Under the pieces are notes generated by a model. The model saw only the letters and a program-made list of their open reading frames with translations, was not told the DNA's origin and did no database searches. DNA of 64,000 bases from an uncultured Acidobacteriota bacterium (GTDB lineage: Bacteria > Acidobacteriota > Vicinamibacteria > Vicinamibacterales > 2-12-FULL-66-21), in assembly GCA_963697775.1 (NCBI GenBank), contig CAVOPH010000016.1, forward strand, positions 25,190-89,189, given 5' to 3'. The position numbers and the translations under genes are program-made. Below are positions 625-47,726 of this stretch, one piece after another. Each line of letters opens with the position of its first letter. Within the stretch, counting starts at the first letter, position 1.

Positions 625-1447
625 CGCCAGCCCGGTTGGAGGCGGACAGGTTGTCGATGATGTCGCGGATCTCGAAGACGTACTTCATGAACTCCGGCTC
701 GCGCTGCATCACCTTGGGCGGCCGGTCTGGCGGCGGGACCTCCATCTGCCGAAGAATCGTGCCGGGCGCCGACGAGAAGACATAGACGCGGTCTCCCAGG
801 TACACCGCCTCCTCGATCGAGTGGGTCACAAAGAAGACCGTCGCCTGCGCTTCGCGCCACAGATCGACGAGCAGCGCCTGCATGTGCAGCCGGGTCGTCG
901 GATCGAGGGCCCCGAAGGGTTCGTCCATGAGAATGATGCGCGGCGACAGGATCAGCGTCCGGGCAATTGCGACGCGCTGCCGCATGCCGCCCGAGAGCTC
1001 GCTCGGATACTTGGTCGCGTCGCGCTTGACGTCGAGCCCCACCTTCCCGATCCACTCGCGCGCGCGTTCGCGGCGCTCCGCCGCCGCGACGCCGCGGCAT
1101 TCCAACCCGAACGCCACATTATCTTCGACCGTGCGATTGTCGAACGAGGTGTAGTCCTGGAAGACCATGCTGCGATCGGCGCCCGGGCATTCCACGCGGT
1201 TGCCCGCGACGAGCACGGTTCCCTCGGTCGGCGGATGATGCGGCCGAAGCCCGGCAATCAGACGAAGCACGGTCGATTTCCCGCAGCCTGAGGGGCCGAG
1301 GATCGCGATGAACTCGCCTTTGTGCGGCAGGTCCGGCACCGAGAACGTGATGTCGCGGACGATCGTCACGCTGCCGAATCGCTTCGTGACGTTCTTGAAC
1401 TCGACAACGTTGCCAGGTGCGGCCGGCGCGGCCTCGGGATCGGTCAC
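617..1447 (-). CDS. ABC transporter ATP-binding protein, NitT/TauT (SsuB/TauB-like)
   Basis: Walker A GPSGCGKS, signature LSGGMRQR, Walker B ILMDEPF, H-loop VTHS. Confidence 0.95.
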   Translation of the reverse strand: MTDPEAAPAAPGNVVEFKNVTKRFGSVTIVRDITFSVPDLPHKGEFIAILGPSGCGKSTVLRLIAGLRPHHPPTEGTVLVAGNRVECPGADRSMVFQDYTSFDNRTVEDNVAFGLECRGVAAAERRERAREWIGKVGLDVKRDATKYPSELSGGMRQRVAIARTLILSPRIILMDEPFGALDPTTRLHMQALLVDLWREAQATVFFVTHSIEEAVYLGDRVYVFSSAPGTILRQMEVPPPDRPPKVMQREPEFMKYVFEIRDIIDNLSASNRAGDD

Positions 1448-1449
1448 CG

Positions 1450-2271
1450 TCAGTCCTCAACCGAACGATAAGGAAACAGCCCGCGCTGGAACCAGAAGAG
1501 CACGCGGTCGATGCCATACGCGAGCACGCCGATGATCATCAGGATCAGGATGATGTGCTCGGACATGCCGCGCCGCTGGCTCGCCATCAGGAGATATCCG
1601 AGCCCGTGCTCGGCGTTGATCAGCTCGGCGAGCATGATATAGCCGAAGGCCAGCCCGAACAGGTGTCGCAGGCTGTTGTAGATATCGGGAAGCGCGAGCG
1701 TGACGAGCACCTTCAGCACGACCTGGTGCGTCTTGGCGCCAAGCGTTTGCGCGGTTTCGACGTACCGATCCGGGACGCCGACGACCGCAGCGACCGCGTC
1801 CGAGTACACGAACGGCACGCAGGCGATGAAGATAAACATCACCTTCTGCGTTTCGTCGATGCCAAACCAGAGAATCGTCAGCGGGATGAGCGCGGCAACG
1901 GGCAGATTGCGTCCAAAGAGCGCAATCGGCGCACCGGCTGCTTCAATCACCCGCCACGCGCCAGCGGCAATGCCGAGCGGCACGCCGACGAGAACCGCCA
2001 GGCCGAATCCCACCAGCACGCGTTTCAGCGTCGCGGCAATGCTCTGCAGGAGCGCGCGTTCCCTGAACAGGCTCGGAAAGCTTCGGATCACTTCGCCGGG
2101 ACTCGGCAGAATCACTGGCGAGATCCAGCGATCCTCGGATCCCAGTCCTGACGTCGCGATCCACCACAGCAACACGATGACGCCGACGGCCAGTACGCCG
2201 ACGAGCCGCCGCGTCATTCGTGGCGGCGAGATGCGGAGCGCCAGGAGCTCCGGTTTGGCGTCGCCCGGCAT
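1450..2271 (-). CDS. ABC transporter permease, NitT/TauT (SsuC-like)
   Basis: Multiple TM segments, ILPSP motif, EAA-like loop YVETAQTLGA, AELI...GLGYL. Confidence 0.93.
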   Translation of the reverse strand: MPGDAKPELLALRISPPRMTRRLVGVLAVGVIVLLWWIATSGLGSEDRWISPVILPSPGEVIRSFPSLFRERALLQSIAATLKRVLVGFGLAVLVGVPLGIAAGAWRVIEAAGAPIALFGRNLPVAALIPLTILWFGIDETQKVMFIFIACVPFVYSDAVAAVVGVPDRYVETAQTLGAKTHQVVLKVLVTLALPDIYNSLRHLFGLAFGYIMLAELINAEHGLGYLLMASQRRGMSEHIILILMIIGVLAYGIDRVLFWFQRGLFPYRSVED

Positions 2272-4002
2272 TTACTTCGCGCCCGGCGCGGCTTCCGCCG
2301 GATACACCTTCACCTCGACGCGCCGGTTCTTGGCGCTGTTCTCGGGATCGGACGGATCGGCCGGACGATCCCATCCCAGACCGGCGGTGGAGAACTGATT
2401 CGGTTGCAGCGACGGGAACTTCCGCACAATCGCTTCCTTCACCGAATTGGCGCGATTCAACGACAGCTCCTGGACCAGGCTCTTCGGCACCGACGCTTTC
2501 ATCGACGCATCGGTGTGTCCTTCGATGACGATCCGCGCGGCGCCGTACTGGCCCGCCAGCTTGCCGATTTCCTCGACGACGAATCCGACGTTCGGGTCGT
2601 AGAGCTCTTCGGCGTCCTTGCCGCCGGAGTCGCGCGTGACCTTCTTGTTGAGATCCCACGAGTTCGGGAAGAAATGGATCACGACCGTCTTGGTCAGGAT
2701 CTCGTCCTTCTCGCCTTGCACGGTTCCGGCTGACGCCGGCGCGAAGTGGACGTCGTACTCGTTCTTCTGCGACGCGAATTTCGGCTCGGACGCGAGCTTC
2801 TGGATGATGGAGAAGTCCATCACCTGATCGAACGGCGTCTGCTCGGTGACCGCGTTGATCCGCTTGTAGAGGAAGTACGCGGTGGACCAGGTGCGCTCGA
2901 AACTCGTCGGGTTGTTCTGGTTCAGGAAGAAGTCGCGATTCTCGGCGTAGTTGGTCGAGTGCGCGTCGCCGAGCATCCCGAGCGCGTCTCCCTCAGGAAT
3001 CGAATAGCCCGCTGCCATCAGCTTCGCGACCTTCTGCTTCGACTCCTGCGACTTCAGATCGACCATCGCGTCGAAGATGCCGCGCGTGATCCCCTCCATG
3101 ATGTCGGGATTGTCCTTCGCGAAGTCGGCGCGCGCGAACCAGACGTCCGCGATCAGCTTGTTCGCCGTCGCGGTCGTCACCAGCATGTGATTGCCCTTGA
3201 CCTTCTCGAGGTTGTAGATGTCGGGCGCCCAGCTGACCACACCGGCAAGGCTCTTGTCGGCATTGAACGCGGCGGCCGCCTGGAAGGCGTCCTGCGTGAA
3301 CTTGAACTGGACTTCTGCCGGCTGAACGCCCGCGTTGATGAGCGCGTTCAGGATGAAGAAGTGCGACGGCGAGTTCTGCGCCAGCACGACGGTCTTGCCG
3401 CGCAAATCGGCCATCGTCTTGATCGCGTCGCGGACAACGATGCCGTCGCCGCCGTTCGACCAGTCGACCTGCTGATAGACGCGCGGCATGACGCGCGAGT
3501 CCTTGCGCAGTCCTTCGAGAAAGAGCGGGATCATGTCGAGCGTCGCCCAGCCGATGTGCAGGTTGCCGGCCGCGTACGCATCGCGCATCACGATCGGATC
3601 GTCACTCAGCACGAGTTCGACCTTGAAGTCCTTGCCGCCGGGCGTCTTCCACAGCTTTCCGGGTTTGAAGCCGTTGTTCGCGAGAATGATCGGGCTCCAG
3701 CCGGCCCACACGTTGATGCCGAAACGCACCGTGCGGTCGGCCATCGGCTTGTAGCTGGAGATGCCCTTGACCTCCGGCAGCCGTGTCGCCGCGACGTAGT
3801 TGTATTCCTTGACCGTGGTGATGCCGGCGCTGTCCGGCGCTTCCGCGCCGGTCTGCATCTTCTTCAGCTCGTCGGCCGAGAATTGACCCGTCTGCGACTT
3901 CGGTCCGATCGCGCCGTATCGCCACAGCGCGAGGCCGACGAGACCGAGCACCATCAGCAGGACGGCGACGTAAAAAGCAGGTCGGGGCTTTCCGTTGGCC
4001 AT
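2272..4002 (-). CDS. Membrane-anchored NMT1/SsuA-type solute-binding protein fused to a C-terminal OmpA-like peptidoglycan-binding domain
   Basis: N-terminal TM; SBP motifs (DWSNGGDGIV, DLRGKTV, SPSHFF); C-terminal IEGHTD...LSLNRANSV...NRRVEV. Confidence 0.88.
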   Translation of the reverse strand: MANGKPRPAFYVAVLLMVLGLVGLALWRYGAIGPKSQTGQFSADELKKMQTGAEAPDSAGITTVKEYNYVAATRLPEVKGISSYKPMADRTVRFGINVWAGWSPIILANNGFKPGKLWKTPGGKDFKVELVLSDDPIVMRDAYAAGNLHIGWATLDMIPLFLEGLRKDSRVMPRVYQQVDWSNGGDGIVVRDAIKTMADLRGKTVVLAQNSPSHFFILNALINAGVQPAEVQFKFTQDAFQAAAAFNADKSLAGVVSWAPDIYNLEKVKGNHMLVTTATANKLIADVWFARADFAKDNPDIMEGITRGIFDAMVDLKSQESKQKVAKLMAAGYSIPEGDALGMLGDAHSTNYAENRDFFLNQNNPTSFERTWSTAYFLYKRINAVTEQTPFDQVMDFSIIQKLASEPKFASQKNEYDVHFAPASAGTVQGEKDEILTKTVVIHFFPNSWDLNKKVTRDSGGKDAEELYDPNVGFVVEEIGKLAGQYGAARIVIEGHTDASMKASVPKSLVQELSLNRANSVKEAIVRKFPSLQPNQFSTAGLGWDRPADPSDPENSAKNRRVEVKVYPAEAAPGAK

Positions 4003-4055
4003 GAATCAATGCTCCTGTCAGCAGCCCATTGAAGGCTGCACTACACTTCTCTTAT

Positions 4056-4210
4056 CCGAAGGGTTTCGCCCCTCGGAGTCCCCCTCTCGCGCGCCGCTTC
4101 GCCGGTTCGCTCCGTTTCCGCCTCCGCCAAGGCTACGGCGAGACCGCGCCGAAGCGCCTTCGGCGCGAAGGCGGGCGCGTGGCTCGCTTCGCTGCGCTCG
4201 CTCGCGCTGC
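4056..4210. repeat. Composite palindromic REP-like intergenic element
   Basis: Hairpins CCGAAGGG-tttc-GCCCCTCGG and GCCGAAGCGCCTTCGGCGCGAAGGCGG (4148-4174) plus TCGC-rich tracts, inside an operon spacer. Confidence 0.65.
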
Positions 4211-4225
4211 CGAGTCCGTCTCGGT

Positions 4226-4984
4226 TTAATTCGTCTGTTTCTCGGTGGCTTTTTCGGCCGCGGGTCCGAGGTCCTTGGCCGTCTGGGCCATCGGTGACGT
4301 CTCGGGAGACTTCAACCCCAGTTCGACCTCGAAATCGGTGAGCGCCTGTTCCGCGAGCTGGCCTTGCATCCGCTCCTCTGCCTGGATTTCGGCGATGCCC
4401 TTCGACGAGAGGTCGGCAGCGACGCGGACCTTGCCGCGGTTCTGATCGATCTTCTGCTGGATCACGCTTTCGATCTCGCCGAAGTCCGTCGTCAGGTTCA
4501 TCTCGAACGTTTCAGACAGCTTGGCGATCTCGGCCTCGGCCGAGCTCATCTTCAGCTCGGCGTCGTACTTCTGGATTTTTTCGCGCAGCTCGATCAGCTT
4601 TTCGTTGGCGTGTTGAATCTTCTTCAGGTTGTTGCCGTAGGCGGTCTCGTGCATCTGCAGCTGGCCCTCGTTGGCCGCCATCTCCGTCTTGGCTTTCTGC
4701 AGCTCCAGCGCGAACTTTGACGCGGTCGCGCGATCGCCGGCCTTGAGATAGGCCTTGGTTTCCGCCTCGAGCTTCTGCACGTGTGACCGGTTGGCGGACA
4801 CCTGCCGGTTCACGCGCTCGACCAGGCCGCGATACTGTTCAAGCCCTGAACGGCCTTCCTTGAGCTGTTCGACGGCACGGTCGTATTCGTAGCGCATCTG
4901 GGCCACGGGATCGGCCTCCCAGAAGATGTTCGCCACCTTGTTTATCTGCGCGACGAACGCCGACCAGAACTTGTGGAAAATCAC
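4226..4984 (-). CDS. PspA/IM30 (ESCRT-III-like) family protein
   Basis: Amphipathic N-terminus (FHKFWSAFVAQINKV), EADP motif, KAYLKAGDRATASKFA hairpin, all-helical coiled coil, 252 aa. Confidence 0.82.
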   Translation of the reverse strand: MIFHKFWSAFVAQINKVANIFWEADPVAQMRYEYDRAVEQLKEGRSGLEQYRGLVERVNRQVSANRSHVQKLEAETKAYLKAGDRATASKFALELQKAKTEMAANEGQLQMHETAYGNNLKKIQHANEKLIELREKIQKYDAELKMSSAEAEIAKLSETFEMNLTTDFGEIESVIQQKIDQNRGKVRVAADLSSKGIAEIQAEERMQGQLAEQALTDFEVELGLKSPETSPMAQTAKDLGPAAEKATEKQTN

Positions 4985-5010
4985 GGGGGCTCCTTCTAAA
5001 AATCTACGAG

Positions 5011-5790
5011 TTACTTCCTGGCAGGTTCCCGTTCGCCGCCGACCGCCTCGGCGAGGATCTTGCCCTGGTAAATACCGTCGAGTGCCGTGCGCAGCTCGGC
5101 GCCGGTTCCGGCGCCGATGACGTCTCCGCCGGCGTCCTTGAGGAATGCAAACTTTTCCGGGCTCGTATCGAACGCGACGAAGTAGGTTTGCACGCCTCCT
5201 TCGCTCCGCCGCCAGATGTCTCGCGCGACATCGTCGGGGCTGCGTCCATTCGTGTTGTCGCCATCGGTGACGACCAGGAGGTACTTACGGAACACGCCGG
5301 CGCGATAGAGATCTGGCCGCGCCTCTCGCATCGCATCGCCGATGGCGGTGCCTCCGCCCGGACGCGGCAGGCTCGCCAGCGTCGCTCGAACCGCGGCGCG
5401 ATCGTACGGCTGGATCGGCCGCAGGACGTGGACGCTGCTGGCAAAACTGTAAACGCCAATCTTGATCGGAAAATCGGGTCGCTTGGCCACGAACGCGTCG
5501 GTGGCGTCGAGCATCGCCTCGAGCGCTTCCTGGGCGACGACGTATTTTGGGCGCGAGTCGCCGGGCGCATCCTGCTTCATCGAGCCCGACGTGTCCACGA
5601 GGATCGCGACCGCGGCCCCCAAACCCTCCTCGACTTCGGCTTGATAGGGAGCGTCGGACTCGGGAGCCTCCTTGGCGGACCTGGACCGGTCGCGGTGCGC
5701 GCTCGGCTGGCACGCAAGAACAACAACCGACGGGAGGAGAACGGCAAGAGCCAATTCTCGGATTCGTCGCGCGACAGAGCGGCTGCCCAT
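5011..5790 (-). CDS. von Willebrand factor A domain lipoprotein
   Basis: MIDAS motif DTSGSM, GGTAIG, VVTDG; lipobox-like VVLAC; start taken as the ATG at 5790. Confidence 0.85.
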   Translation of the reverse strand: MGSRSVARRIRELALAVLLPSVVVLACQPSAHRDRSRSAKEAPESDAPYQAEVEEGLGAAVAILVDTSGSMKQDAPGDSRPKYVVAQEALEAMLDATDAFVAKRPDFPIKIGVYSFASSVHVLRPIQPYDRAAVRATLASLPRPGGGTAIGDAMREARPDLYRAGVFRKYLLVVTDGDNTNGRSPDDVARDIWRRSEGGVQTYFVAFDTSPEKFAFLKDAGGDVIGAGTGAELRTALDGIYQGKILAEAVGGEREPARK

Positions 5791-5877
5791 TCCCGGTGAG
5801 GGGGAGTTTATCGTCCGCCGTCCGGCGCGATCAAGCACAGGTAGCGATCCTGGCGAGGCTTCGCCGTTCCGTCTCAT

Positions 5878-7613: not shown

Positions 7614-7683
7614 ATAAGGAGGAGCATAGTCGATCGGCAGTTTGGGGAGGATTTCAGCGGCAGATGTTAAATTTTTCGCTTTA

Positions 7684-7699
7684 TGCTATTTTCATAGCA
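7684..7699. promoter_or_regulatory. Candidate BlaI-family operator palindrome TGCTAT-N4-ATAGCA
   Basis: Perfect 6-bp inverted repeat in the AT-rich stretch upstream of the BlaI-like gene. Confidence 0.5.
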
Positions 7700-7815
7700 C
7701 CTTTTGCCGTTCATCACCGTCCAATGCCCTAGAACGCAGGTTTGAACGGACCATGGACGGAGCGATTGCACCAATGACGAGACAACCTCTTCCGCCCGTA
7801 GGCGGAGTCCAGAGA

Positions 7816-8193
7816 ATGAGTTACGACCTTAGCCGGCGCGAACGTCAAATTATTGACATACTCTACGCGAACGGCCGGGCGACCGCGGCGGAGGTCCAGG
7901 CCGCCCTGCCCGACCCGCCGAGCTATTCGGCCGTCCGGGCGATGCTTCGGATTCTCGAGGACAAGGGGCACGTCCGGCACGAGCAGGATGGTCCCCGCTA
8001 CATTTATCTCCCGACGGTGGGACGTGACAACGCCAAGCGATCGGCGCTGCGCCACATGCTGAAAACCTTTTTCGACGGTTCCGCCGAACAGGCGATCTCG
8101 GCGCTCCTCGACGAGTCGTCGCAGAAACTGTCGGACGCGGAACTCGATCGTCTGGCGCGTCTGATCGATCAGGCACGGAACGCCGGAGCCTAG
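7816..8193 (+). CDS. BlaI/MecI/CopY family transcriptional repressor
   Basis: LSRRERQIIDILY, YSAVRAMLRILEDKGHV, FFDGS; directly upstream of an M56 gene. Confidence 0.93.
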   Translation: MSYDLSRRERQIIDILYANGRATAAEVQAALPDPPSYSAVRAMLRILEDKGHVRHEQDGPRYIYLPTVGRDNAKRSALRHMLKTFFDGSAEQAISALLDESSQKLSDAELDRLARLIDQARNAGA

Positions 8194-8195
8194 CC

Positions 8196-10546
8196 ATGAG
8201 CATTCTTCACTTTCTCTCGCTCGACTCCGAATCCTCGTGGATCCTCGTCGCCGACATCGTGCTCAAGGCGACGCTGCTGTTGGTCGCGGCCGGGGCCGCC
8301 GCCTTCGTGCTTCGCCGCGCATCCGCGGCGGCACGGCACATGGTCTGGACGCTCGCGCTCGCGGGTGTGCTCCTGCTGCCGATGCTCTCGATCGCGCTGC
8401 CTCGGTGGCAGGTGTCTTTGGTGACGATCGAAACGGCTGCCAGCTCCCAGCTTCCAGCTTCCAGCTTCGCGCTCTCAGCTCAGGATCGCGCGCCCAATTT
8501 CCAATTGCCCGTTTCCGGTTCGCAGCCAGCCTTCGCTCATAAGTCGTGCGAAGGCTGTCCCGCCGAAGCGGCCGTGGCCGCGAAGGCGGACCAGACCGGA
8601 TCCCGGATTGGTCAAGCCGCGACCAACATGTCTTGGTCCACGATGCTCCTGGCGATCTGGCTGAGTGGCGCGCTCTTGATCCTCGCGCGGCTCGCCGCCG
8701 GGATCGTCGCGGTCCGCTGGATGTCACGGCGCACTCAGCGGGTGACCGACGCGCCGTGGCTTCAGCAGGCCCGCGCGCTGGCCGAGTCGCTTGGAGTGTC
8801 TCCGCGGATCGTCTTCCTTCGCAGCAACAGTGCGACCATGCCGATGGCGTGGGGCATCCTGCGACCGGCCGTGTTGATGCCGTCAGAGGCGGATGAATGG
8901 CCGGCCGAGCGGCTGCGGATCGTGTTGCTCCACGAGCTGGCGCACGTCAAGCGGCGCGACTGCCTGACGCATGTGCTCGCGCAGATTTCGTGCGCGCTGC
9001 ACTGGTTCAATCCGCTGGCATGGATGGCCGCGCGGCACGTGCGCACCGAGCGCGAGCGCGCGTGCGACGACCTGGTGCTGGCCGCCGGAACACACGGGCC
9101 CGACTACGCCGATCAACTGATCGAGATTGCGCGCGTGATGCGCTCCGGCCGGTTCCCGGCGGTGCTCGCCGGTGCAAGCCTGGCGATGGCCCACCGGTCG
9201 GAACTCGAGGGCCGGCTGCTGGCCATCCTCGATCCGACCGTTCCGCGCGCGGGCCTGTCACGGGTGCGAGCGTTCGGAGCGACATCCGCCTTTGCGCTGG
9301 CGGTCATGCCCCTCGCGTCACTGCAACCGTGGACGGTCGTGCCTGCGCAGGATCAGCTGCCCGCGACTCAGATTCAGCAGAGCACGGCGTCTGCCCAGCA
9401 ACCGACGCCTGCCCCGACGCCGTCGCCCTCGCCTTCCGATTCAACCGAGAGGCGCGGACGTCGCGGTATCGAGCCACAAGCGCACGATGACACGGTGGAA
9501 TCAGCCATTCAGAGCGCGGTCCAGAGCGGAGTGCAGTCCCGAATCCAGAGCAGTGTGCAGTCCCGCGTTCAGAGTAGCGTCCAGAGCCAGGTCCAGAGTC
9601 AAGTGCAGAGCGGGATTCAGAGCGCCGTGCAGAGTGGCGTGGCGTCGAGCGTCGCCTCCGCGGTGACGACCGGCATGCATTCGTTGATGGGCCACGTCGG
9701 TCTCGACGCGGTGGTCGATTCGTCGCTCTGGAATATCGCGGCGCAGGCGGCTGACCACGGCGATAACGCGCACGCCGCGCGCCAGAGCAAAGCAGACCCC
9801 AGGACGGTGGCCGCGCTGACCGCCGCGCTCAAGGATAGCGGACAAGGACGTCCGCGAAACCGCGATGCACGCGCTCGTCCAGCTGCGCGATCCGAGCATC
9901 TTCGATCCGCTCGTCCAGGCGCTATCGGATGGCTCGCCTGACGTCCGGGAGCAGGCGGCGTTCGGGCTCGGGCAGCTCCGCGACCGGCGCGCGGTCGAAC
10001 CGTTGATCACCGCGCTGAAGGATCAAAACGCCGATGTACGTCAGCAGGCGGCATTCGCACTTGGGCAGATTCGCGACCGCAGTGCTGTGCCCGGGTTGAG
10101 CGCCGCGCTGAAAGACTCGAGCGACGACGTGCGCGAGCAGGCCGTGTTTGCGCTTGGACAGATTCGCGATCCCGGATCCGTAGACGCGCTGGTCGGCGCG
10201 GTGCACGACAGCAAGGCCGACGTCAGGCAGCAGGCGGTCTTCGCGCTCGGGCAGATCCGCGATCGGCGTGCCGTCGAACCGCTGATCTCGGCATTGAAGG
10301 ATACCGAGGGCCGACGTGCGCGAGCAGGCCGCATTCGCGCTCGGACAGATTCGCGATCCGCGCGCGGTCGAGCCGCTGGTGATTGCGCTCAAGGACAGCG
10401 TCTCCGACGTGCGTGAGCAGGCGGCGTTTGCGCTCGGGCAGATTCGCGACCCGCGCGCGATTGACGGCTTGACCTCGGCGCTCAAGGACTCGAGCGCCGA
10501 CGTCCGGCAGCAGGCCGCGTTCGCGCTCGGCCAGTTGGCGCGGTGA
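8196..10546 (+). CDS. BlaR1/M56 family metallopeptidase with a Q/S-rich linker and about 8 C-terminal HEAT (PBS-lyase-like) repeats; stitched across indels near 9840 and 10310
   Basis: HELAH zinc motif, HWFNPLAW, ERACDD, LEGRL; continues as DVREQAAFALGQIRD repeats in ORFs 9865-10416 and 10316-10546. Confidence 0.88.
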
Positions 10547-10612
10547 TTCGGATTGCTGATGTTGATGGCTGATTGAACCCGTCAATCAGCCATCAGCAAT
10601 CAGCATTCGAAA
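10545..10612. repeat. Palindromic heptamer-type intergenic repeat (TGCTGAT / ATCAGCA)
   Basis: gattgctgatgttgatggctgattga...tcaatcagccatcagcaatcagc. Confidence 0.65.
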
Positions 10613-10695
10613 ATCGACCCTGTCAGGGCGGTCCCTTTGGTGCCGCCAACCTGTTGTCGTGTCTGGAGATGCTAGGTTTTTAGCAGGAGAAGCGC

Positions 10696-11455
10696 ATGAC
10701 TCCCCTCGCCGTCTTTGTTCGCACGTTACTGAAGACCAGCGCGATCTTCATCGGCGTCACCACCGTGATGCTGCATCCGTCGTTCGAATGGTCCCGCGCG
10801 TCGGGATCGTCGTCGTCGCGCGTGACGGCGCGGCAGAACCCGACAGAAGCGGCGGTTGACGGCCTCGTCGCCGCGCTGAAGGACACCGACGCGGGCGTCC
10901 GCCGTCAGGCCGCAGCAGCGCTTGGTGAGATCGGCAACGCGCGCGCGGTGACCGGACTGATGGACGCGCTGAAGGACGCCGATCGCCGACGTGCGCCAGC
11001 ATGCATTGTCTGCGCTCGGTGAAATCGGCGATCGCCGGGCGGTCCCCGCGATCGTCGGCCTGCTGAAGGACAGTTCACCTTCGATTCGCAGTCACGCCGC
11101 CTCTGCGCTCGGCGAGCTCGGCGACACCGCCGCAGTGGATCCACTGATTGCCGTCATCCGCGACGCGAATGCCGATGTGCGGCGGCACGTCATTTCGGCG
11201 CTGGGCGAGCTTGGAGACTCTCGCGCCCTGCCGGCCTTGACCGCGGCCCTGAAGGACGAGGACGTGGCGGTGCGGCGGGCGGCCATCTCGGCCATCGCCG
11301 AGATCAGCGATGGCGGCAGTGGTCACAGATTCAACATCGGCAACCCTCACCCGCATCCACATCCGCATCCGCACCCGAATCCAAACCCGAACCCGAACCC
11401 GCAATCCGAACCCCAATCCGCGGCTCGGGAATTGACAAGAGGAGCACTGAGGTGA
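10696..11455 (+). CDS. Exported HEAT-repeat protein with a (PH)n(PN)n tail; indel near 10985, true stop probably 11435
   Basis: Repeats [14 protein letters not shown] / [14 protein letters not shown] / [14 protein letters not shown]; hydrophobic N-terminus. Confidence 0.8.
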
Positions 11456-12436
11456 CCCGGACCATCGCGGTGGCGGTTGTCGCGCTGCTGACGCTCACCG
11501 GTTCCGCCAACGAGAACCGTGAACCGTATTCCCAGGCGCGAAGCGTTCACGATCTCGTCGGCGACCTCGCGGCGCAGGATCCCATGGTGCGGGCCCGGGC
11601 CGCCTGCGAGATGCGCGAACTCGGTGACGCTGCCGCCGACGCGATCGAACCCCTGACGAAATTGCTTGGCGACGCGGCGCCGGTTGAACCTGTTGTCTGC
11701 AGCCGTAACTGGTGGCGCGGTAATCCCAACGACCTGACGTCGCCCGGCGAGCAGGCCGCAGCTGCGCTGGTCGCAATCGGCACTCGCGCCTTTCAGCCGG
11801 TGCTGGGAGCGCTTCATAGCACGCTGTGGACGGCACGCCGGAATGCCGCGTGGGCACTCGGGGCGTTTGACGATCAACGCGCGGTGGAGGCGCTCGTCGA
11901 GGCGCTGAAAGATCGCGAACCCGGCGTTCGCGAACAGGTCGCGTGGGCACTCGGCGCGATCGACGATAAACGCGCCGTGCAGCCGCTCATCGGCGTGTTG
12001 AAGGATCCCGACCCACGGGTACGGCGCCAGGCGGCGTGGGCCCTTGGCGCGATCGACGATCCGGCCGCCGCCGACGCGCTCTCGGCAACACTGACCGACG
12101 ACCGACGAGCGGACGCGCGAGCAGGCAGCCTGGGCGCTCGGCGCCATCGACGATCGAAGCGCCGTGCCCGCGTTGATCCGATCGCTGAACGATCAGGGTG
12201 AGCGCGTGCGCAAGCAGGCGGCATGGGCGCTCGGCGCGATCGACGATTCGCGCGCAGTGGAGCCGCTCGTCAAGGCGCTGTCCGATCAGAGCAACGGCGT
12301 CCGCCAGCAGGCCGCCTGGGCGCTCGGCGCGATCGGCGATTCACGCGCGCTGCCCGGCTTGCTTCCGTCGCTCAAGGACGCCGACGCCGGCGTGCGAAAG
12401 CAGGCCGCATGGGCGATTGGCGCAATCGGAAAGTGA
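11452..12436 (+). CDS. Secreted HEAT-repeat protein; indel near 12105
   Basis: GGAG SD, signal peptide, about 6 VRxQAAWALGAIDD repeats. Confidence 0.85.
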
Positions 12437-12446
12437 GGGCGGGAAC

Positions 12447-14941
12447 GTGCTGTCGGACCTTCGCTATGCGGTACGGTCCTTCCGGAAAACGCCTGCGCTG
12501 ACGGCGATCGTCATCGTCACGCTGGCGCTGGGCATTGGCGCAAACACGGCGATCTTCAGCGTCATCGATGCGGTGCTGCTGCGCCCCACGCCGCTGCAAC
12601 ACCTGGATCGACTGGCCATGGTGTGGGAGACCGATCGCAATACCGGCACCACACGCGAGCCGGCGTCCTTTCCTGACTTCATCGACTTCAAAACACGAAG
12701 CCGCACCTTCGAGGATCTCGCGGCAGTCATGGCCGGAGAGGTCAATCTCAGTCCCGACCACGGCGATCCGGTGCGGCTGCCGGTGCTCCAGGTATCGGCA
12801 AACGCCCTTCCGACTGCTTGGACTCCAGCCGATCGCTGGCAGGACTTTCACCGCCGACGAGGACCGGCCGAACGGCGCCCACGTCGTGCTGATCGGCGAG
12901 CGCCTGTGGGAGCGCGCGTTCGATCGGCGTCTATCCGTCATCGGATAGACGCTGCGGCTCGACGAACGCCCGTATATCGTCGTCGGCGTCATGCCGGAGG
13001 GCGCTGATTTCGGAGCCCTTCAGATCCTGTCTGCGGCAGCCTACTCTCGCGGCTTTGCCGATCGCGGCATGAAGGCGAACGTTGACATCTGGATGCCGCT
13101 CCAGGGTGATCGACCACCAGCTGCCTCGATCGACGCATCCGCTCTTCGTGGTCGGACGACTGACGCCCGGGCGCCACGCACGACGCCGCGCATGGCGAGC
13201 TGGCACGACAATCGCCGCCGATCTGGAACGCACGTATCCCGGAGAACGCCGCGCGTGGCGCCAATGTCGAGACGCTCGATGTCGTCGTCTTTGGTCCGGT
13301 GCGTCCGGCCCTCTTCATCCTGTTGACCGCCGTCGCGCCTCGTCCTGCTGGTGGCATGCGTCAACGTCGCAAATCTTCTGCTCGCACGAGGGACCGCCCG
13401 TGCTCAGGACGCGGCGGTTCGTCGCGCGCTCGGCGCATCGCAGGGACGGCTTCTGAGGCAGGCGCTTGCCGAGACGATGCTGCTGACGATGACGGCGGCG
13501 GCGGCCGGGATCGCGTCTGCGCCTACGTGGTGTTCGCGCGCTCGTGGCGATTGCGCCCGCGGAGGTTCCGCGGCTTTCGCTGGCCACGATCAAATTCCGC
13601 GTGCTTATCGCCACGCTGGCCGTCGCCGTGTTCGTCGGGATTGCTGTTCGCGCTTGTCTGCCCGCTTGGCAGGCTCGTCGAGCTCAATCTGCAGTCGTCG
13701 CTGTGCGGATAACACCGAACCGCGCATCGGCCGGCCCAGCACAGGGTCGGATTCGCAGTGTCCTCGTGATCGTCGAGCTCGCACTCGCCGTCGTCCTCGT
13801 CTGCAGGGCGGCGCTGCTGATTCGAAGCTTCTGGACGCTGCAGCAGGTCAATCCCGGATTTCAGAGCCGAGGGCGTCTTGAAAGCCGAATACCAGTTGCC
13901 GCCGTCGCGATATCCCGGCTGATTTCCGCGGTGGCCGGACTTCAAGGCAGCAGCATGAATTCACGCGCGCGCTGCTCGCGCGTGCGGCGGCGCTTCCCGG
14001 CGTCCGTCGGTCGCGATCGCCGGGAATCACCCGCTCGATCCAGGGTTCACAAACTCGTTCACGATCGTCGGCCGTGAGGCTGAGGCGAAGCACGTGGCCT
14101 GAAATCTCGATTCGGCGAGTGAGCCCGTCCTACTTCGAGACCGTGGACCTCGGGCTGGTTAGCGGACGGCGTGTTCACCGACGGCGACCGCACGACGGCG
14201 ACTCCGGTGGCGCTGATCAATGCGGCTGCGGCCGCACGATTCTTCTCGGACCGCGAATCCGATCGGCGCACGATTCGCTTCTGGGGAACCGCTCGCACCA
14301 TCGTTGGAGTCGTTGCCGACGAGAAATTTCACGGCATTGCGGAGGCGTCACCAATCGCCGCCTATACGCCGGTCTCTCAGACGCCGTCCGCAAATGGCGC
14401 GGGTGTGCTGCTGGTGCGGACGTCTGGCAATCCGACCACAGCTTCGGTCAGGCCGTCACCGGCGCAATCCACGACGATCGATCGGGGCCTCGCGGTGTTT
14501 GCAATCGAGCCGCTCGACGGTTACGCTGTCGCGATCGATCGGGCAACGCCGCTTCACCATGCTTCTACTCGCGATTGTTCGCCGCTGTCGCGCTGACTAC
14601 TCGCGGCCGTCGGCGTCCACGGCGTACTCAGTTATGGCGTCACACAGCGCCGCCGGGAGATCGGCATCCGCATGGCACTTGGGGCCCGCGCGGTGGATCT
14701 CGTGACGCTCGTCGTGCGCCAGGGAATCGGACTCGCGGTCCTGGGTCTGGCGGGCGGCCTCGCCGGCGCTTTCGCTTTGAGCCGGTTCCTGAGCACGCAG
14801 CTCTTCGGGATCACGCCCACCGATCCGGCCACTTTCTCAGCTGTCGTCGCGATTCTCCTGGTCGTTGCGCTGGCGGCCACCGCGGCGCCTGCTCGTCGCG
14901 CCGCATCGGTCGATCCCGTCGTCAGCCTTCGAAGCGAGTAA
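12447..14941 (+). CDS. ADOP/MacB-FtsX-type duplicated orphan ABC permease; many indels
   Basis: [13 protein letters not shown]...[48 protein letters not shown]. Confidence 0.88.
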
Positions 14942-14944
14942 CCC

Positions 14945-17367
14945 GTGCGCACATGGCTTCAGGATCTACGTCACGGCGTTCGATTGCTGCACGCGTCGCC
15001 GGCCTTCACCACGATCGCCGTCGCCGCGCTGGCTCTCGGTATCGGCGCCAACACCGCGATCTTCAGCGTCGTCAACACGGTGCTCATTCAACCGCTGCCG
15101 TACAAGAGTCCCGATCGTCTGGCGATCGTGTGGGAGCACAACCTGCCACGCGATCGCAAGGACAACGTCGTGTCGCCGGGCAATTATCTTCACTGGCGCG
15201 ACATGAATCGGGTATTCGACGAGATGTCGATCGTGAGCATGACGTTTCGCACCGCCTACACCGGCGACGGGCAGCCGGAAGAGTTGCCGATGCAGGTCGT
15301 GAACGCCACGCTCTTTCCGATGCTTGGCGTGAATGCCGCGGTCGGACGAGTCTTTACTGCGGAAGAAGATCGGCCGAATGCCAGTCGCGTCGTGCTCCTG
15401 AGCGATCGGTTGTGGAAACGGCGCTTCGGCGGCGACCCGGACGTCGTCAATCGCTCCATTCGTCTCGGCGGCAATCTGTTCACCGTCGTCGGCGTGATGC
15501 CGCGTGGATTTCTCTATTCTCGACAAGAACGTCGACGTCTGGGTTCCTGCCGGATTCTGACGGCGGAGGCGAGAACACCGGGCGGACGCTGGACGATGGT
15601 CATCGCGACGCTTGAAGGATGGCGTCAGGTTCACCCAGGCACAGGACGACATGACGCGCGTGGTCGCGAGTTGACGGCGATGTTTCCGAACGTTGATACG
15701 GGTTGGACGGCACGCGTCGTGCCGCTGAAGGAGCAGCTGACCGGCGACGTCCGGCCGGCTCTCCTCGTGCTGGTCGGCGCGGTCGGCTTCGTGCTGCTGA
15801 TCGCCTGCGCGAATGTCGCCAATCTGCTGCTTGCGCGCGCGACGACGCGTCAACGCGAGCTGGCGGTTCGAGCGGCGCTCGGCGCGGATCGTGGTAGATT
15901 GATCCGCCAGTTGCTCTCGGAGAGCCTTCTCTTGGCGTTGATCGGCGGCGCCGCCGGGATCGCGCTTGCGTGGTGGGGACTCTACCTTCTGCGCACGTGT
16001 GGCGGCAACGTTGCGGTCCCGCGACTCGAGTTGGTCGGCGTCAACGGCTGGGTTCTTCTGTTTGCGGTGCATGTCGCGCTGGCCAGCGCGCTGTTGTTTG
16101 GCGTCATTCCGGCGTCGCCGCGGCCGGAACGAGCCTGACCGAATCACTGAGGGAAGGTGGGCGAACCGGGACGCCACGTCGCGGCGGCCGTGCGCGGCAG
16201 GCGCTCGTCGTGATCGAGATGGCGCTCGCGCTGGTGCTGCTGGTTGGCGCCGGCTTGCTGGTCCGCAGCTTCATCACGTTGATGCACGTCGATCCCGGCT
16301 TCGACCCATCACGGACGCGTGACGATGAAGGTCACTCTGCCTTCGGCAAGTTATCCCGAAGCGTGGACAGTCGATTGCGTTCTTCGATCGATTGTTCGAT
16401 CGCGTCGACACGCTTGCCGGGCGTGCAGGCCGCCGGCGGCATCAGCTTCCTGCCGCTCAACGGACTTGGTGCGGGACGAGTTTCACGATCGAGGGACAGG
16501 AGAAGCCGCGGCAGGGCGACGAGCCGGTGTCCGACGTGCAAGGTCGTCACACACGACTACTTCAAGGCGATGGGCATTCCACTCCTCCGCGGACGATTGT
16601 TCGACCGCCGTGACACGGCGCCGAACACACGACGCGTCATCGTCAGCGAGACGATGGTGAAGAAGTATTTCGGCGAATCGGATCCGATCGGCCAGACGGA
16701 TCGTATTGTCTTGGAACGACAAGGGGCCGGATGAGATCGTCGGCGTCGTCGGCGACGTGCGATCCGCGAGCCTCGAGACCGAGCCGCACGGGGACCAGCT
16801 ATCTGCCGCCTGCCCGCTTCGCCTACCCATTCATGAGTGTGGTCGTGAAGACGAGCGACGGAAACATGCGCGTCGCTGCCCTCGGTGGTAAACGCCGTGC
16901 ATGAGATCGATCCGGATGTGCCGGTCTCCGACATCATGCCGATGACGGAAGTCATCTCCGTATCGACGGCACAGCGTCGATTGACGATGGTGCTGCTGAT
17001 GGTTTTTGCCAGGCGTGGCGCTCGTGCTCGCATCGGTCGGAATCTATGGCGTCATCAGTTACTCGGTGACACAGCGCACGCAGGAGATTGGGATTCGTAT
17101 GGCGCTCGGCGCGCAACACCGCGACGTCTTGCGCATGGTCGTCGGCCGCGCATGGTGCTGGCGATCGCGGCATCGCGGTCGGCGCGCTCGGAGCCTTCAC
17201 CTTGACCCGGCTCATGACTAAGCTGCTCTTCGATGTGCACCCCGCAGGACCCGGTGACGTTTGGGGCCGTTTCTGTTCTGCTCGCGCCGTGGCCGTCGCT
17301 GGCCAGTTATCTTCCCGGCCGTCGCGCAACCCGTGTCGATCCGGTCGTCGCGCTCCGGGCCGAGTGA
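14945..17367 (+). CDS. Second ADOP/MacB-FtsX-type duplicated orphan ABC permease; many indels
   Basis: [75 protein letters not shown]. Confidence 0.88.
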
Positions 17368-17452: not shown

Positions 17453-18788
17453 ATGCTGCTGGCGTGGGCGGTCATCGCCCTGCTCATTCTCCTGACCGGC
17501 TTGTACGTCGCGGCAGAGTTCGCGGCCGTCAGCGCGCGACGCAGCCGTCTCCGCCGGCTGGCGGAGGACGGCAACGTGCTTGCGGCTCGGCTCCTGCCGG
17601 TTCTCGAAGATCCCGCGAGCGCTCGATCGCTACATCGCCGCGTCGCAGGTCGGCATCACGCTGTCCAGCCTGATCCTCGGCGCCTACGGCCAGGCGACGC
17701 TCGCGCCGCGGTTGACGCCGCTCCTGGCAGCGCTTCGAAGGACTGCAACCGTCGACGGTCGAGTCGGCGTCCGCCGGCATCGTCCTCGATGTTTCTGACC
17801 ACGCTGGCGGTCATTCTCGGCGAGCTCGTGCCCGAAGTCGCTGGCCCTGCAGAACCCGACCCGGACGGCGCTCTTCACCGTGCTGCCCATGCAGTGGTCG
17901 CATGCGCGCGTTCTCGTGGTCGATCACCGTTCTCAACGGCAGCGGGGTGCTCCTCCTGCGCGCGCTTCGCATTCCCTCGACCGGCCATCGTCACGTGCAC
18001 TCGCCGGAAGAGATCGCGCTGCTGATCGCTGAAAGCCGCGATGGCGGGTTGCTCGAGCCCCAGGAACAGGTGCGCCTTCATCGCGCGCTTCGTCTGGGCC
18101 TTCGCACCGCGCGCCAGCTGATGGTCCCACGGGCTCGGCTGGCGGCGATTGACGCGTCGCTTCCCTTTGAGGAAGTGCTTCGCGTGCGTCGCCGCGAGCC
18201 CCTACAGCCGGCTGCCGGTCTATCGCGGATCGATCGACAACATCGTCGGCATCCTTCATACGAAGGATGTCGTGATGCGCTACGTGCAGGGCGGCAGCTT
18301 GTCGGTCGCGTCGCTGCTGCGCCCGATCGTCCGCGTTCCCGAGACCATGCCGGCCGATCAGACTGCTGACGTTCCTTCGCGAGCGCCGCAGCCACCAGGC
18401 GCTGGTCGTGGACGTCAACGGCGTCGGTCGTCGGGTTGATCACTCTCGAGGACGTCGTCGCCGAACTGCTCGGCGGCGTCGCCGACGAATTCAAGTCGAT
18501 GCAGGCGCGGCCGATTCGGCTGTCCGACGGACGGCTGCGCCTTCCGGGGTCGATGCGGCTCGATCAGGCTGCGCCGCTCGTCGGACCGCAGTGGCGCGAT
18601 GTCGATCGGCACGGTCGCCGAGCAGATCACGACGGCGCTCGGTCGCGTACCAGAACCCGGCGAAGAGACTCGACGTCGACGGTCTGCACGTCGAAGTCGA
18701 AGCCGTCGAAGGTGACGCCATCGCCTCGGTCATCGTCGGCGATCGCCCAGGCAGGACGAGGGCGCCGAGTCGTGACGCGCCGTTCTGA
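17453..18788 (+). CDS. CNNM/CorC (hemolysin-like, DUF21-CBS-CorC) transporter 1; indels, end approximate
   Basis: GLYVAAEFAAVSARRSRL, SQVGIT, GELVP, YSRLPVY, ITLEDVVAELLG. Confidence 0.87.
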
Positions 18789-20077
18789 TCATCGCGGTGC
18801 TCATCATTCTGAACGGCGTGTTCGTCGCCGCTGAGTTTGCGATCGTCGGCGCACCGCGGGCCGCGATCGATCGGAAGGCTCAGGACGGCAATCGGCTCGC
18901 CCGCCTCGGTCCAACGCGTGCTCGACGATCCGAAGCAGCAGGATCGCTACATCGCCACGGCCCAACTCGGCATCACGGTCGCGAGTCTCGGACTCGGGCA
19001 TGTACGGCGAGCACGTGCTCGCCGATTGCGTTTACGCGGTGCTTGGCGGCCACGGTCTGCCGCGGCTGGCTCGCGTCGCACGGCGTCGCGAGCACGATCG
19101 CCGTTGCCATTCTGACCTACTTTCACATCGTCATTGGCGAGATGGTCCCGAAGTCGCTGGCACTGCAGTACGCCGAACAGCTGGCGCTGTGGATCACGCC
19201 GCCGATGTTCTGGATCCGCAACGCGCTGTTCCCGTTCGTGCTGGTGCTGAACGCGCTCGGCAATTACGTCTTGAAAATCATTGGCGTCAACCGGCAGGCG
19301 CAAAACGCTGATCAGTACTACACCGCCGGAAGAACTGCAGCTGATCGTGCAGGAGAGCGAGGATCTCGGGGCGATCCGGGCCGAGTCGGGACAAGATGCT
19401 GCAGGAGCTGTTCGAGTTCGGCGATCTCACGGCGGGCGAGGTGATGGTGCCGCGCGTGCGCGTCGTCGGCATGCCGCTCGGGACCGACACCGGATCAGAT
19501 CCGCGAGCTCCTGGGCCGCACGCCGCACACGCGCTACCCGATCTACGAGCGCGATCTCGATCACATCGTCGGCATGGTTCACATCAAGGATCTGCTGCGC
19601 GTGCTGCTGCGCAACGAATCGATTCGGCGAAGCCACGCGCGACCGCTGCCGCTGGTCCCGGAAACGGCGGCTCTGGATTCGGTGCTGTCGACGATGCGCC
19701 GGGAGCGAACGCAGATGGTGATCGTGCTCGACGAGCATGGCGGAACGTCCGGCGTCGTCACGCTGCAGGATCTGTTCGAGGAGGTCGTCGGAGAAATCGA
19801 GGAGGGCCCGAGCGGTGCGCCGCAGGTCTATCGCGACGCGGGCGGACGGCTTCGCGTGCCGGGAACGATGCGGCTCGACGAGCTCGGTCAGCAGTTCGAT
19901 CTCGATCTGGAGCACGAGGACGTCGACAGCGTCAGCGGCCTGGTGCTCACGGTGCTCGGCCGGCCCCCGGCCGTCGGCGACACCGTTCGCTACGAACGGC
20001 TTGCAGCTGGAGGTCACCAGCGGTCAAAGGGCCATGGGGTCGATGAATGCGCGGTGTCGCTGGGCCAGCCTGATTAG
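18772..20077 (+). CDS. CNNM/CorC transporter 2; indels
   Basis: NGVFVAAEFAIVG, AQLGIT, GEMVPKSLA, EVMVPR, LDEHGGTSGVVTLQDLFEEVVGEI. Confidence 0.88.
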
Positions 20078-22359: not shown

Positions 22360-22590
22360 GAACCCCTGATCACTGATCACTTATCCTGAATCCCTGCTCC
22401 CCGAATCCCTGATCGTTGAATCCCTCATCCTCGCATCACTGGATCCACGAATCCTTGAATCGCACGAGTCTTCGACTACACGCAGTTCAGTTCAGCGGGC
22501 AGGCTCCAACGAGGCTGCAATTTCTGGATTCGACGATTGGAGGATTCGACGATTAGCGATTCTCGATCAGTGATCAGTGATCAGGGATTC
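22360..22590. repeat. Inverted heptamer-repeat element with 22-bp terminal inverted repeats
   Basis: gaacccctgatcactgatcact (22360-22381) matches the reverse complement of 22569-22590 at 21/22; internal GAATCC / GATTC units. Confidence 0.75.
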
Positions 22591-24560
22591 AGAGCTCGAC
22601 CTGCATGCCGAGCTCGACGACGCGTTCGGGAGGGATCTTGAAGAACGCGTTGGCGCGCATGGCGTTGCGGGCAATGAGCACGAACAGTCGTTCTCGCCAC
22701 AGCGGCAGGCCGGGGCGGCGTGTCGCCAGCAGGGTCTCTACGCCGAGAAAAAATGTCGTCTCGTTGAGGTCCATCGGGAAACCGCGAGCGGACGCTTCCT
22801 CGAGCGCGTCCGGAACATCCGGCTCCTCCATGAAACCGTACCGTAGCGTCAGGCGATAGAAGCCGTGGCCCAGGGTATCGACCGTCGCGCGATCGTCGGC
22901 AGTGACGTGCGGGACGTCGCTCGTTGTCACCGTGAGGAGGACGACCCGCTCGTGCAACACCTTGTTGTGTTGCAGGTTGTGAAGAAGCGTCGGCGGCGTT
23001 CCCTGCAGGTTGCTGGTCATGAAGATCGCCGTCCCCGACACCCGCTGCGGCGGGTACGTTTCGATGTCCTGCAGGAACCGGTCGAATGGATAGAGCCGCT
23101 CTCGCATGCGTTGCGCGAGGAGCGCACGGCCCGCTTTCCAGGTCGAGAGAACCGTGTAAACGACAATACCGACCACGAGCGGGAACCAACCGCCGTGGGC
23201 CACCTTCGTCAGGTTCGCGCCAAAGAATGCGAGCTCGATGAGAAAGAAGAAGAGCGCGATCGAGCCGGCCACGGGACGCCGTACGCCCCAGGCGCCGCGC
23301 GCGACGAGGTACGCAAGCATCGTCGTGATGAGCATCGTCAAGCTGACCGCGATGCCGTACGCCGCGGCGAGCGCGCTCGAGGAGCGGAATCCGACCACCA
23401 GCCCGAGCGTGGCGAACATCAACGCCCAGTTCACCTGGGGCACGTAGATCTGGCCCTGGTGATGCGCTGACGTGTACAAGATCTCCAGCCGCGGTGAATA
23501 TCCAAGCTGGATCGCCTGCCGGGTCAGTGAGAAGGCCCCGGAGATCAGCGCCTGCGACGCAATGATCGCGGCCGCCGTGGCAAGGATCACGAGCGGAAGC
23601 AGTCCCCAGCGCGGCGCCATGAGATAGAAGGGCGACGATGCAGCGGCGGGATCGAGCAGAATCATCGCGCCCTGTCCGAGGTAGTTGAGAAAGAGCGCTG
23701 GCAGCACAATCGAAAACCAGGCCAGCCGGATGGGCTTTGGGCCGAAGTGGCCCATGTCGGCGTACAGGGCCTCTCCGCCGGTGACCACCAGGAACACGGC
23801 ACCCAGGACGACGAAGCCGTGCCAGCCGTTCGCCTGGAAGAACGTCAGGCCGTGAAAGGGATTGAAGGCCGACAGGACTCTCGGCTCCCGCACGACCCAC
23901 GAGATCCCCAGAATCGGCGATCGTCGCGAACCACACGATCATCACCGGACCGAACAGCATGCCCACGCGTGCCGTCCCGCGCGACTGGATCATGAACAGG
24001 ATCACCAGGATCACGAGCGTGATCGGGACGATGTAGGGCTCGAAGATGTGGGTGACGACTTCGAGTCCTTCAACCGCGCTGAGAACCGAAATCGCCGGCG
24101 TGATCATGCCGTCGCCGTACAGCAGCGCCGCGCCAAACAAGCCGAGCGCGATCAGCATCGCGCGGCTCTTGCGCTGCGCATCGGGTCCCTGCGCGACCAG
24201 CGCGAGGAGCGCGAGGATGCCGCCTTCCCCCTTGTTGTCGGCGCGCATGACGAAGAGGATGTACTTGACCGAGATGATGAGCGTCAGCGACCAGAAGATC
24301 AGCGACAGCACGCCGAGCACGTTGTCGTGCGTCGCGGCCACGCCGTGCTCTCCGTGGAAACACTCACGCAACGAGTACAACGGGCTGGTGCCGATGTCTC
24401 CATAGACCACGCCGAGCGCGCCCAGCGTCAGCAGACCGAGACCGGAGGAGTGCTCAGGGTGCGGAGCACGACGGGGCTGCGGAGCTGGTCGGGAAGTGGA
24501 TGGCGAAGACAACGCGGAAGTTGAGCCAGTCAGAAGGCGCCGGACCCCGCTGGGTGACAT
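22589..24560 (-). CDS. kup: Kup (KT/HAK/KUP) potassium uptake transporter; indel near 23910
   Basis: [72 protein letters not shown]. Confidence 0.96.
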
Positions 24561-43253: not shown

Positions 43254-43344
43254 GGAATGCTGATTGTTGAATGCTGAATGCTGATTGATCTGGCTGAGAC
43301 GAAAACAGACAACCGCTGACAGACAGGTTCAAGGACGAGTTTCC

Positions 43345-45447
<2,103 letters not shown>

Positions 45448-45458
45448 GAGGCACTATC

Positions 45459-47720: not shown

Positions 47721-47726
47721 GATCCA

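Follow-up and report, generated by a model that had tools for sequence, protein, structure and literature searches.

Results

Gene content of the locus

We analysed a 64,000-nucleotide (nt) window (C16:25190-89189) of the 5.46 Mb genome, 67% complete, of an uncultured member of the Acidobacteriota; soil metagenomes hold contigs nearly identical to it. Six consecutive genes on the plus strand, blaI, M56-HEAT, H2, H3, ADOP1 and ADOP2, appear to encode a regulated-proteolysis switch of the BlaI/BlaR1 type with a HEAT-repeat solenoid as its sensor. The original prediction, made from the sequence alone, had described this set as a BlaI, an M56 peptidase with about 8 HEAT repeats, two further HEAT proteins and two ADOP permeases with neither ATPase nor beta-lactamase. 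All six genes lie where it had placed them, and the 15 open reading frames (ORFs) between 2.3 and 20 kb of the window gave no Pfam match to an ATPase or a beta-lactamase.

The first gene, blaI (7816..8193), encodes a repressor of 125 amino acids (aa) of the BlaI/MecI/CopY family (PF03965, 100.8 bits, cut-off 22.6). After a gap of 2 nt, M56-HEAT (8196..10546) encodes an M56 zinc protease with the motifs HELAH...ERACD (PF05569, 107.7 bits, cut-off 31) and four predicted membrane helices, followed by a low-complexity linker and 8 HEAT repeats. The next two genes are H2 (10696..11455), with a conserved N-terminal helix, 5 HEAT repeats and a C-terminal (His-Pro)n(Asn-Pro)n tail (11342-11401), and H3 (11452..12436), with a signal-peptide-like N-terminus, two conserved cysteines and 7 HEAT repeats. 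ADOP1 (12447..14941) and ADOP2 (14945..17367) are duplicated MacB/FtsX-type permeases that match TIGR03434, ADOP2 with 433 bits over its first 397 aa. Intact orthologues reach 848 (ADOP1), 993 (ADOP2) and 836 bits against a cut-off of 622.3, and two stretches each of MacB_PCD and FtsX are found in both ADOP orthologues. The H2 stop overlaps the H3 start, the gaps between H2 and H3, H3 and ADOP1, and ADOP1 and ADOP2 being -4, 10 and 3 nt. On the contig, the nearest ATPase match is some 11 kb upstream and belongs to a different cluster.

Frameshifts and the M56-HEAT fusion

All genes downstream of blaI are frameshifted in the assembly: M56-HEAT near 9838 and 10303, H2 near 10984, H3 near 12100, ADOP1 many times and ADOP2 in its second half. 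Indels are abundant elsewhere in the assembly too, and the frameshifts look like assembly errors; they explain the lower scores of the ADOP pieces from the window. The M56 frame itself ends near 9840 and the HEAT repeats go on in another frame. M56-HEAT is one real fused gene, because 110 of its 119 best homologues carry at least 3 HEAT repeats on the same chain as the protease; 8 of the 9 that do not are only 412–474 aa long. The closest fused homologues are 76–79% identical and 772–802 aa long, a 772-aa homologue covers the M56-HEAT region of the window across three frames, and base 9838 is absent from the contigs of all four runs compared, from four studies. The single fused gene of the original prediction is supported. 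Some database records already call the fusion 'HEAT repeat protein/beta-lactamase regulating signal transducer', and the architecture is widespread, since the top 150 matches from a 50%-cluster library include 97 M56 proteins, of which 94 carry HEAT repeats. A search of the ESM Atlas returned generic HEAT clusters only.

Predicted sensor protease and repressor

The zinc ligands H259, E260, H263, E300 and D304 (HELAH and ERACD) are invariant across 119 sequences and align with the HEXXH and EXXXD motifs of BlaR1 (8EXP/8EXS), a protein of N-out/C-out topology (PMC9834060). In the predicted structure of an intact homologue, helices at residues 16-38, 44-67, 160-192 and 369-388 are followed by a low-confidence linker and an 8-repeat solenoid with a pLDDT of about 97 (pTM 0.56 for the whole model), and an extra hydrophobic segment precedes the HEAT repeats in only 2 of 110 homologues. 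By homology to BlaR1 and by this model, the HEAT region probably lies outside the inner membrane rather than in the cytoplasm. The repeats are of the 31-residue, two-helix alphaRep type, and the best Foldseek matches of the solenoid are alphaRep binders (mostly 45–51% identity, target TM-score 0.8–0.9). Repeat number in M56-HEAT proteins ranges from 2 to 14. The linker contains, at 9500-9680, a tetrapeptide repeat, (VQSx)n, that is modelled as a long low-confidence helix and is highly variable in length among homologues.

BlaI is conserved and scores under both the BlaI and the CopY equivalog cut-offs (for CopY, 46.7 versus 121.95 bits). CopY proteins bear a C-terminal cysteine metal motif, and the BlaI of the window has no cysteine. 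A search of solved structures with BlaI gave no match at E 0.001.

Predicted operators and promoter

Two copies of the palindrome TGCTA-N6-TAGCA mark the locus. Palindrome 1 (7684..7699), upstream of blaI, has no mismatch in any of 20 orthologous upstream regions; palindrome 2 (10670..10685) lies 10 nt before the H2 start, overlaps the ribosome-binding site and recurs with at most one mismatch in 20 of 20 orthologues, 9 of them exact. These are the only two exact sites in the genome. Other spacers (0-12) between the same arms have 0–1 genome matches, shuffles of the window gave 0.23 sites at one mismatch, and none of the 10 one-mismatch sites in the genome has a T/A-rich spacer like those of palindromes 1 and 2. 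Different palindromes occur at 3 of the 5 other blaI genes of the genome, and none of its 46 other ADOP starts has the palindrome within two mismatches. We infer that BlaI binds TGCTA-N6-TAGCA, which would make both copies operators. A degenerate second half-site is present at 7665-7680, 19 nt upstream of palindrome 1, and relatives often have two full palindromes 18–23 nt apart. A third palindrome recurring in four genomes of the genus was rejected as chance, being inside a coding gene.

An order-wide search found the palindrome in 95 of 251 genomes. Forty sites among the matches listed were examined in context, a set that excludes the majority of clear blaI/H2 pairs as well as sites already covered by the other loci; 21 lie before blaI, 2 before H2, 5 before an ADOP gene unlinked to blaI, 2 before a GntR-like gene and 10 elsewhere. 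The two sites preceding GntR-family genes (L116:3478 and L123:3517; L and G labels denote the loci and genomes compared) have the spacer GTTCAG, which suggests a second regulator with a similar site.

The -35 element of a predicted extracytoplasmic function (ECF) sigma-type promoter, GCACC-N16-CGTC[CT]AA (7697..7724, plus strand), overlaps the right arm of palindrome 1. The arrangement TAGCACCTT-N14-CGTC[CT]AA directly behind palindrome 1 is kept at fixed spacing in 20 of 20 orthologues, and the same pentamer-N16-CGTC geometry is found in a mapped ECF promoter (PMC3397946). A looser form of the pattern has 30 genome matches at this spacer versus 7–19 at others and stands 6–40 nt before 4 of the 46 other ADOP genes; a scan with the sigma-70 consensus found no promoter. 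ECF-type motifs of the genome at C4:22505, C5:448642, C7:855152, C8:122269, C5:441221 and C5:543212 stand upstream of four complete ADOP genes, of what is probably a broken fifth copy, and of the gene of an 843-aa exported protein whose N-terminus resembles DUF5916/CBM9 proteins. An ADOP-rich ECF regulon in this genome is possible. None of 60 sigma-70 family matches could be assigned as the cognate sigma factor, and no ECF gene with the motif upstream was found.

Conservation of the locus and the link to the permeases

Among 80 retrieved loci, 21 are close orthologues. blaI stands upstream of M56-HEAT in all 21, the order blaI-M56HEAT-H2-H3 is kept in the 19 with enough sequence, and an ADOP gene follows in all 16 whose sequence reaches that far. 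Since mscL upstream and CNNM genes downstream are likewise common to these loci, their conserved order could be mere synteny. Variant arrangements comprise a minimal form, blaI-M56HEAT-ADOP2, with 2–3 HEAT repeats in the M56 protein and no free HEAT protein (L058, L059, L061, L063, L135, L139); blaI-M56HEAT-H3-ADOP2 (L136, L137); H3-blaI-M56HEAT (L089, L133); blaI-M56HEAT-DUF5916-H3 (L022); and the forms of Gemmatimonadaceae and Rhodothermaceae (L028, L030, L032). Three of these records (L058, L061, L063) are titled Bifidobacteriaceae and have the same locus as the Acidobacteria/Vicinamibacterales records L059 and L064; their titles are probably wrong. A sister system (L085, L100, L102, L107, L131) holds blaI and M56 genes with the same palindrome in tandem; its M56 protein is confirmed as fused to ankyrin repeats in L100, and an ADOP gene lies alongside in L085 and L131.

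In phylogenetic trees (built with FastTree and midpoint-rooted, the window proteins being represented only by their N-terminal pieces), three ADOPs that are unlinked to the locus and keep the palindrome (L087, L104, L105) group with the ADOP1 of the window (support 1.0); in two of these genomes the operon holds ADOP2 only, and M56-HEAT is encoded in five of five genomes tested. Of the four exact palindromes in the single-contig genome G035, one precedes blaI-M56HEAT-H3; the other three lie upstream of two ADOP genes far from it. ADOP2, about 40% identical to ADOP1, is sister (0.96–1.0) to an ADOP directly behind blaI-M56-3xHEAT in a different genomic setting, and its orthologues form, with the ADOPs behind short M56-HEAT genes, a clade that excludes the full-length paralogues of the genome. 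Retention of the palindrome at three ADOP1 orthologues far from the operon makes it likely that regulation, and not synteny alone, ties the permeases to the switch. Together with the palindrome 10 nt before H2 and the gaps of -4, 10 and 3 nt, these orthologues indicate that H2, H3 and the ADOPs are likely one BlaI-controlled unit. The tie between permeases and switch proposed in the original prediction is in this way strengthened; its premise that ADOPs are usually linked to PadR regulators proved overstated for this genome, which has at least 44 ADOP matches over the cut-off and a padR gene within 1 kb upstream of 10 of 46 ADOP genes (20 of the 22 padR matches over the cut-off used). The padR upstream regions carry other palindromes.

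The free HEAT proteins

H3 is built of a cysteine-bearing cap and 7 Trp repeats, and its hydrophobic, variable leader and two conserved cysteines are as expected for an exported protein. The conserved N-terminal helix of H2 resembles a membrane anchor more closely than a typical signal peptide. The view that both are secreted fits H3 and is uncertain for H2. An origin of the H2 N-terminus from the N-terminal helix of an ADOP, or from a membrane helix of M56, was rejected (hhalign probability at most 4% in all five comparisons). Searches with the H2 N-terminus gave 18 matches, mostly fragmentary; the H3 N-domain was found in 6 of 201 Acidobacteriota genomes including that of the window, an undercount that missed the H3-like gene of G032. 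The original prediction had the free HEAT proteins as decoys or co-receptors; we found no support for decoys over co-receptors or carriers.

Groove residues and X-Pro tracts

The binding positions of alphaRep proteins are 23, 26 and 30 of the repeat (PMC3754942). Their residues are uniform within each solenoid, with Q-F-Q in the sensor, Q-W-A in H3 and a mixed set with Glu at 30 in H2. Position 26 is Trp or Phe in 474 of 713 repeats from 94 M56-HEAT cluster representatives, versus 58 of 574 in the non-M56 HEAT matches of the same search. Since the fold matches alphaRep protein binders, a polypeptide ligand for the HEAT solenoid is plausible; this much of the original idea of a protein or peptide signal stands, and for antimicrobial peptides, the example then given, nothing was found in support.

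An (X-Pro)6 tract lies in the M56-HEAT linker past the last membrane helix (9399..9434). Among the fetched loci, an (X-Pro)4+ tract past the protease occurs in 21 of 35 complete M56-HEAT frames versus 0 of 48 other M56 frames of equal proline content; after thinning to <60% identity the contrast is 5 of 7 versus 0 of 28. Such tracts are present in 12 of 1578 ORFs of the genome. H2 ends in an X-Pro tail in 14 of 14 aligned orthologues, and G035 has (Asn-Pro)n behind the last repeat of both M56-HEAT and H3. Because a terminal tract cannot space domains, this position suggests a ligand or a tether.

Flanking regions

The strong hairpin between M56-HEAT and H2 (10547..10612; z = -6.6 for 10547-10669) is a dispersed REP-like repeat with like sequence at 53 genome places, and was on this ground rejected as a locus-specific terminator. 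Two tandem CNNM-CBS-CorC genes (17453-20077) come after the ADOPs, in the window as in close relatives; the 86-nt gap before them is filled by a dispersed repeat, and the palindrome was not found before the CNNM genes. Upstream, a conserved minus-strand cluster (620-5877) encodes a vWA protein, a PspA-family protein, an NMT1-like binding protein fused to an OmpA domain, and an ABC permease and ATPase. By their translations, Kup-like, KdpA/KdpB-like and KdpD/KdpE-like genes at 22581-24560, 37546-38688 and 41471-52564 make up a potassium-uptake region.

Discussion

Sequence comparison shows the gene set, the M56-HEAT fusion, zinc motifs that are intact and two conserved palindromes, and from these we infer the working of the system. 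The explanation that we consider best, and hold with moderate confidence, is a switch of the BlaI/BlaR1 regulated-proteolysis type with a HEAT solenoid as sensor, two operators and an H2-H3-ADOP unit as output. The solenoid, predicted to face the periplasm, would capture an extended polypeptide and thereby activate the zinc protease; cleavage of BlaI would then free both predicted operators. Site 1 would block the ECF-sigma promoter, and expression of blaI-M56HEAT would then need an envelope-stress sigma factor as well as derepression; site 2 would govern a single H2-H3-ADOP1-ADOP2 transcript. Membrane-tethered H2 and free periplasmic H3 may share the ligand class of the sensor and either buffer the ligand or pass it on to the periplasmic domains of the ADOPs. 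In the manner of MacB-type permeases, the ADOPs would act on the ligand from the periplasmic side and rely on an ATPase provided in trans. MacB-type permeases work on periplasmic substrates, often small peptides (PMC5985334). The least certain steps are that the aromatic groove would prefer proline-rich extended chains and that the (X-Pro)n tracts of the sensor linker and the H2 tail may serve as built-in ligands that set the off state and the feedback.

These last steps can be put together as a receptor for proline-rich extended peptides, a version of the model that we regard as rather doubtful. The BlaR1 extracellular loop occupies its own sensor, and by analogy the (X-Pro)n tract would hold the Phe/Trp groove in the off state until it is displaced by proline-rich chains from outside (antimicrobial peptides, fragments of plant wall proteins or envelope linkers that have become exposed) and BlaI is cut; the induced H2 tail and H3 groove would then exert negative feedback, and the two ADOPs would clear the peptide.

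Like BlaR1-BlaI and MecR1-MecI of Staphylococcus aureus and Bacillus licheniformis, the locus has a repressor gene followed by that of an M56 membrane zinc protease, with HEXXH and EXXXD motifs, four predicted membrane helices before the sensor and a palindrome upstream of the repressor gene. It differs in that a HEAT solenoid replaces the penicillin-binding domain (blaR1_generic 94–101 bits versus a cut-off of 400), that there is no beta-lactamase or PBP2a target (the two exact sites in the 67% complete genome precede blaI and H2), that BlaI has no Asn-Phe site, and in its palindrome, predicted ECF promoter and diderm host. The M56-HEAT system would work like BlaIR but is not a canonical BlaR1. 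The missing penicillin-binding domain is not surprising, since only about 6% of M56 proteins have one; about 94% of BlaR-like proteins, in 254 architectures, do not (bioRxiv 10.64898/2026.04.08.717257). HEAT is not named in the main text or the Fig. 7 legend of that preprint, whose supplement may list it, and our literature searches found no paper on an M56/BlaR1-BlaI system with a HEAT-repeat sensor. CenIR of Clostridioides difficile likewise has no beta-lactam sensor and a small regulon, in which the most strongly induced gene encodes a neighbouring exported protein; unlike CenR, whose tail is mostly unstructured, M56-HEAT has a folded repeat solenoid (bioRxiv 10.64898/2026.04.08.717257). 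That solenoid shares its 31-residue repeat, fold and variable positions with alphaRep and the natural HEAT_PBS/HEAT_2 source family, and differs from alphaRep in being natural, likely extracytoplasmic, near-identical in groove residues from repeat to repeat and equipped with (X-Pro)n appendages. The permeases resemble other ADOP (TIGR03434) and MacB/YbbP-type proteins in having two MacB periplasmic and two FtsX domains per chain and no linked ATPase; they differ in that they would be controlled by BlaI and not by the acidobacterial PadR.

Several observations weigh against our model. Ten of the 40 fetched palindrome sites have none of the neighbours blaI, H2, ADOP or GntR-like gene, the palindrome is common to BlaI partners of other M56 types such as the ankyrin type, and its presence before two GntR-like genes means that another regulator could own the ADOP site in some genomes. 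Four other operator-bearing ADOPs fall in other clades, and some relatives have no H2 or H3. The placement of the HEAT region outside the inner membrane depends on homology to BlaR1 and a model with a pTM of 0.56, and the fourth membrane helix is moderately hydrophobic (Kyte-Doolittle >=1.6 in 23 of 110 homologues). The Asn-Phe dipeptide absent from BlaI is the scissile bond of staphylococcal BlaI (PMC9834060). No ATPase partner was found in the genome, where LolD/MacB-type matches sit in LolCDE-, FtsEX- or MacAB-like clusters. As to the ligand, uniform grooves could arise by repeat duplication rather than from a periodic ligand, the tail is not ordered in a model of the H2 monomer (pLDDT 50–58), and among 94 distant M56-HEAT representatives an X-Pro tract occurs anywhere in only 40 and as a tail in 13; kin, moreover, are not independent.

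Another explanation of the solenoid is that it is a docking scaffold that contacts the ADOP periplasmic domain, or H3, and that the switch responds to the activity of the permease, much as BceAB-type transporters sense flux. It would account for the minimal form, in which an M56 protein of 2–3 repeats stands with ADOP2 and no free HEAT protein, and for an ADOP2 clade that travels with M56-HEAT. We think it fairly unlikely, as M56-HEAT loci without an adjacent ADOP exist (L022, L028), a repeat number of 2–14 is a poor fit to a fixed interface, and ADOP1 and ADOP2 are only about 40% identical.

Less probable again is an aromatic groove that stacks on a repeating glycan, either a plant or microbial polysaccharide or a polymer of the cell's own envelope, with a regulon for its uptake or export. 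Trp/Phe ladders that differ in repeat number would be well suited to a polymer, a CBM9-like/DUF5916 gene separates M56-HEAT from H3 in L022, and the 843-aa exported protein with a similar N-terminus has the same ECF-type promoter in the window genome. All close structural matches of the solenoid, however, are protein binders, no glycan enzyme of this genome carries the palindrome, and a DUF5916 gene is also found behind an M56 gene without HEAT repeats (L041).

Very improbable is a metal response in which the His-Pro tail of H2 chelates metal, BlaI acts like CopY and the two downstream CNNM/CorC genes, which also follow in close relatives, are the output: His-Pro repeats are found in 13 of 14 H2 tails, but His is absent from one tail and X can be H, N, M, T or R, and neither the cysteine-free, low-scoring BlaI nor the palindrome-free CNNM upstream regions fit it. 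Just as improbable is that the ADOPs are passengers of inherited synteny, the regulon being blaI, sensor and free HEAT proteins only; the many paralogues and the shared mscL and CNNM flanks would allow this, but three genomes have the palindrome at unlinked ADOP1 orthologues, and once the fetched sites upstream of blaI or H2 are set aside, 5 of the remaining 17 stand immediately in front of an ADOP. The ADOP2 clade also accompanies M56-HEAT in other settings, and the gaps before the two genes are 10 and 3 nt.

BlaR-like proteins without a penicillin sensor are already known. What the locus adds is a predicted operator and promoter together with a predicted ADOP regulon, through which the signal can be screened for directly. 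ADOPs form a very large paralogous family in Acidobacteriota, for which we found no function in the literature searched, and a defined operator, promoter and regulon turns two ADOP lineages into an inducible, testable module, in which a palindrome-reporter screen could reveal the signal and thereby the likely substrate. For the roughly 94% of BlaR-like proteins without a known ligand, M56-HEAT also offers a sensor that is folded and easy to express, and it is a source of natural alphaRep-like binders with uniform grooves. If the proline-rich peptide version of the model were true, it would give the ADOP family its first substrate class together with an inducer.

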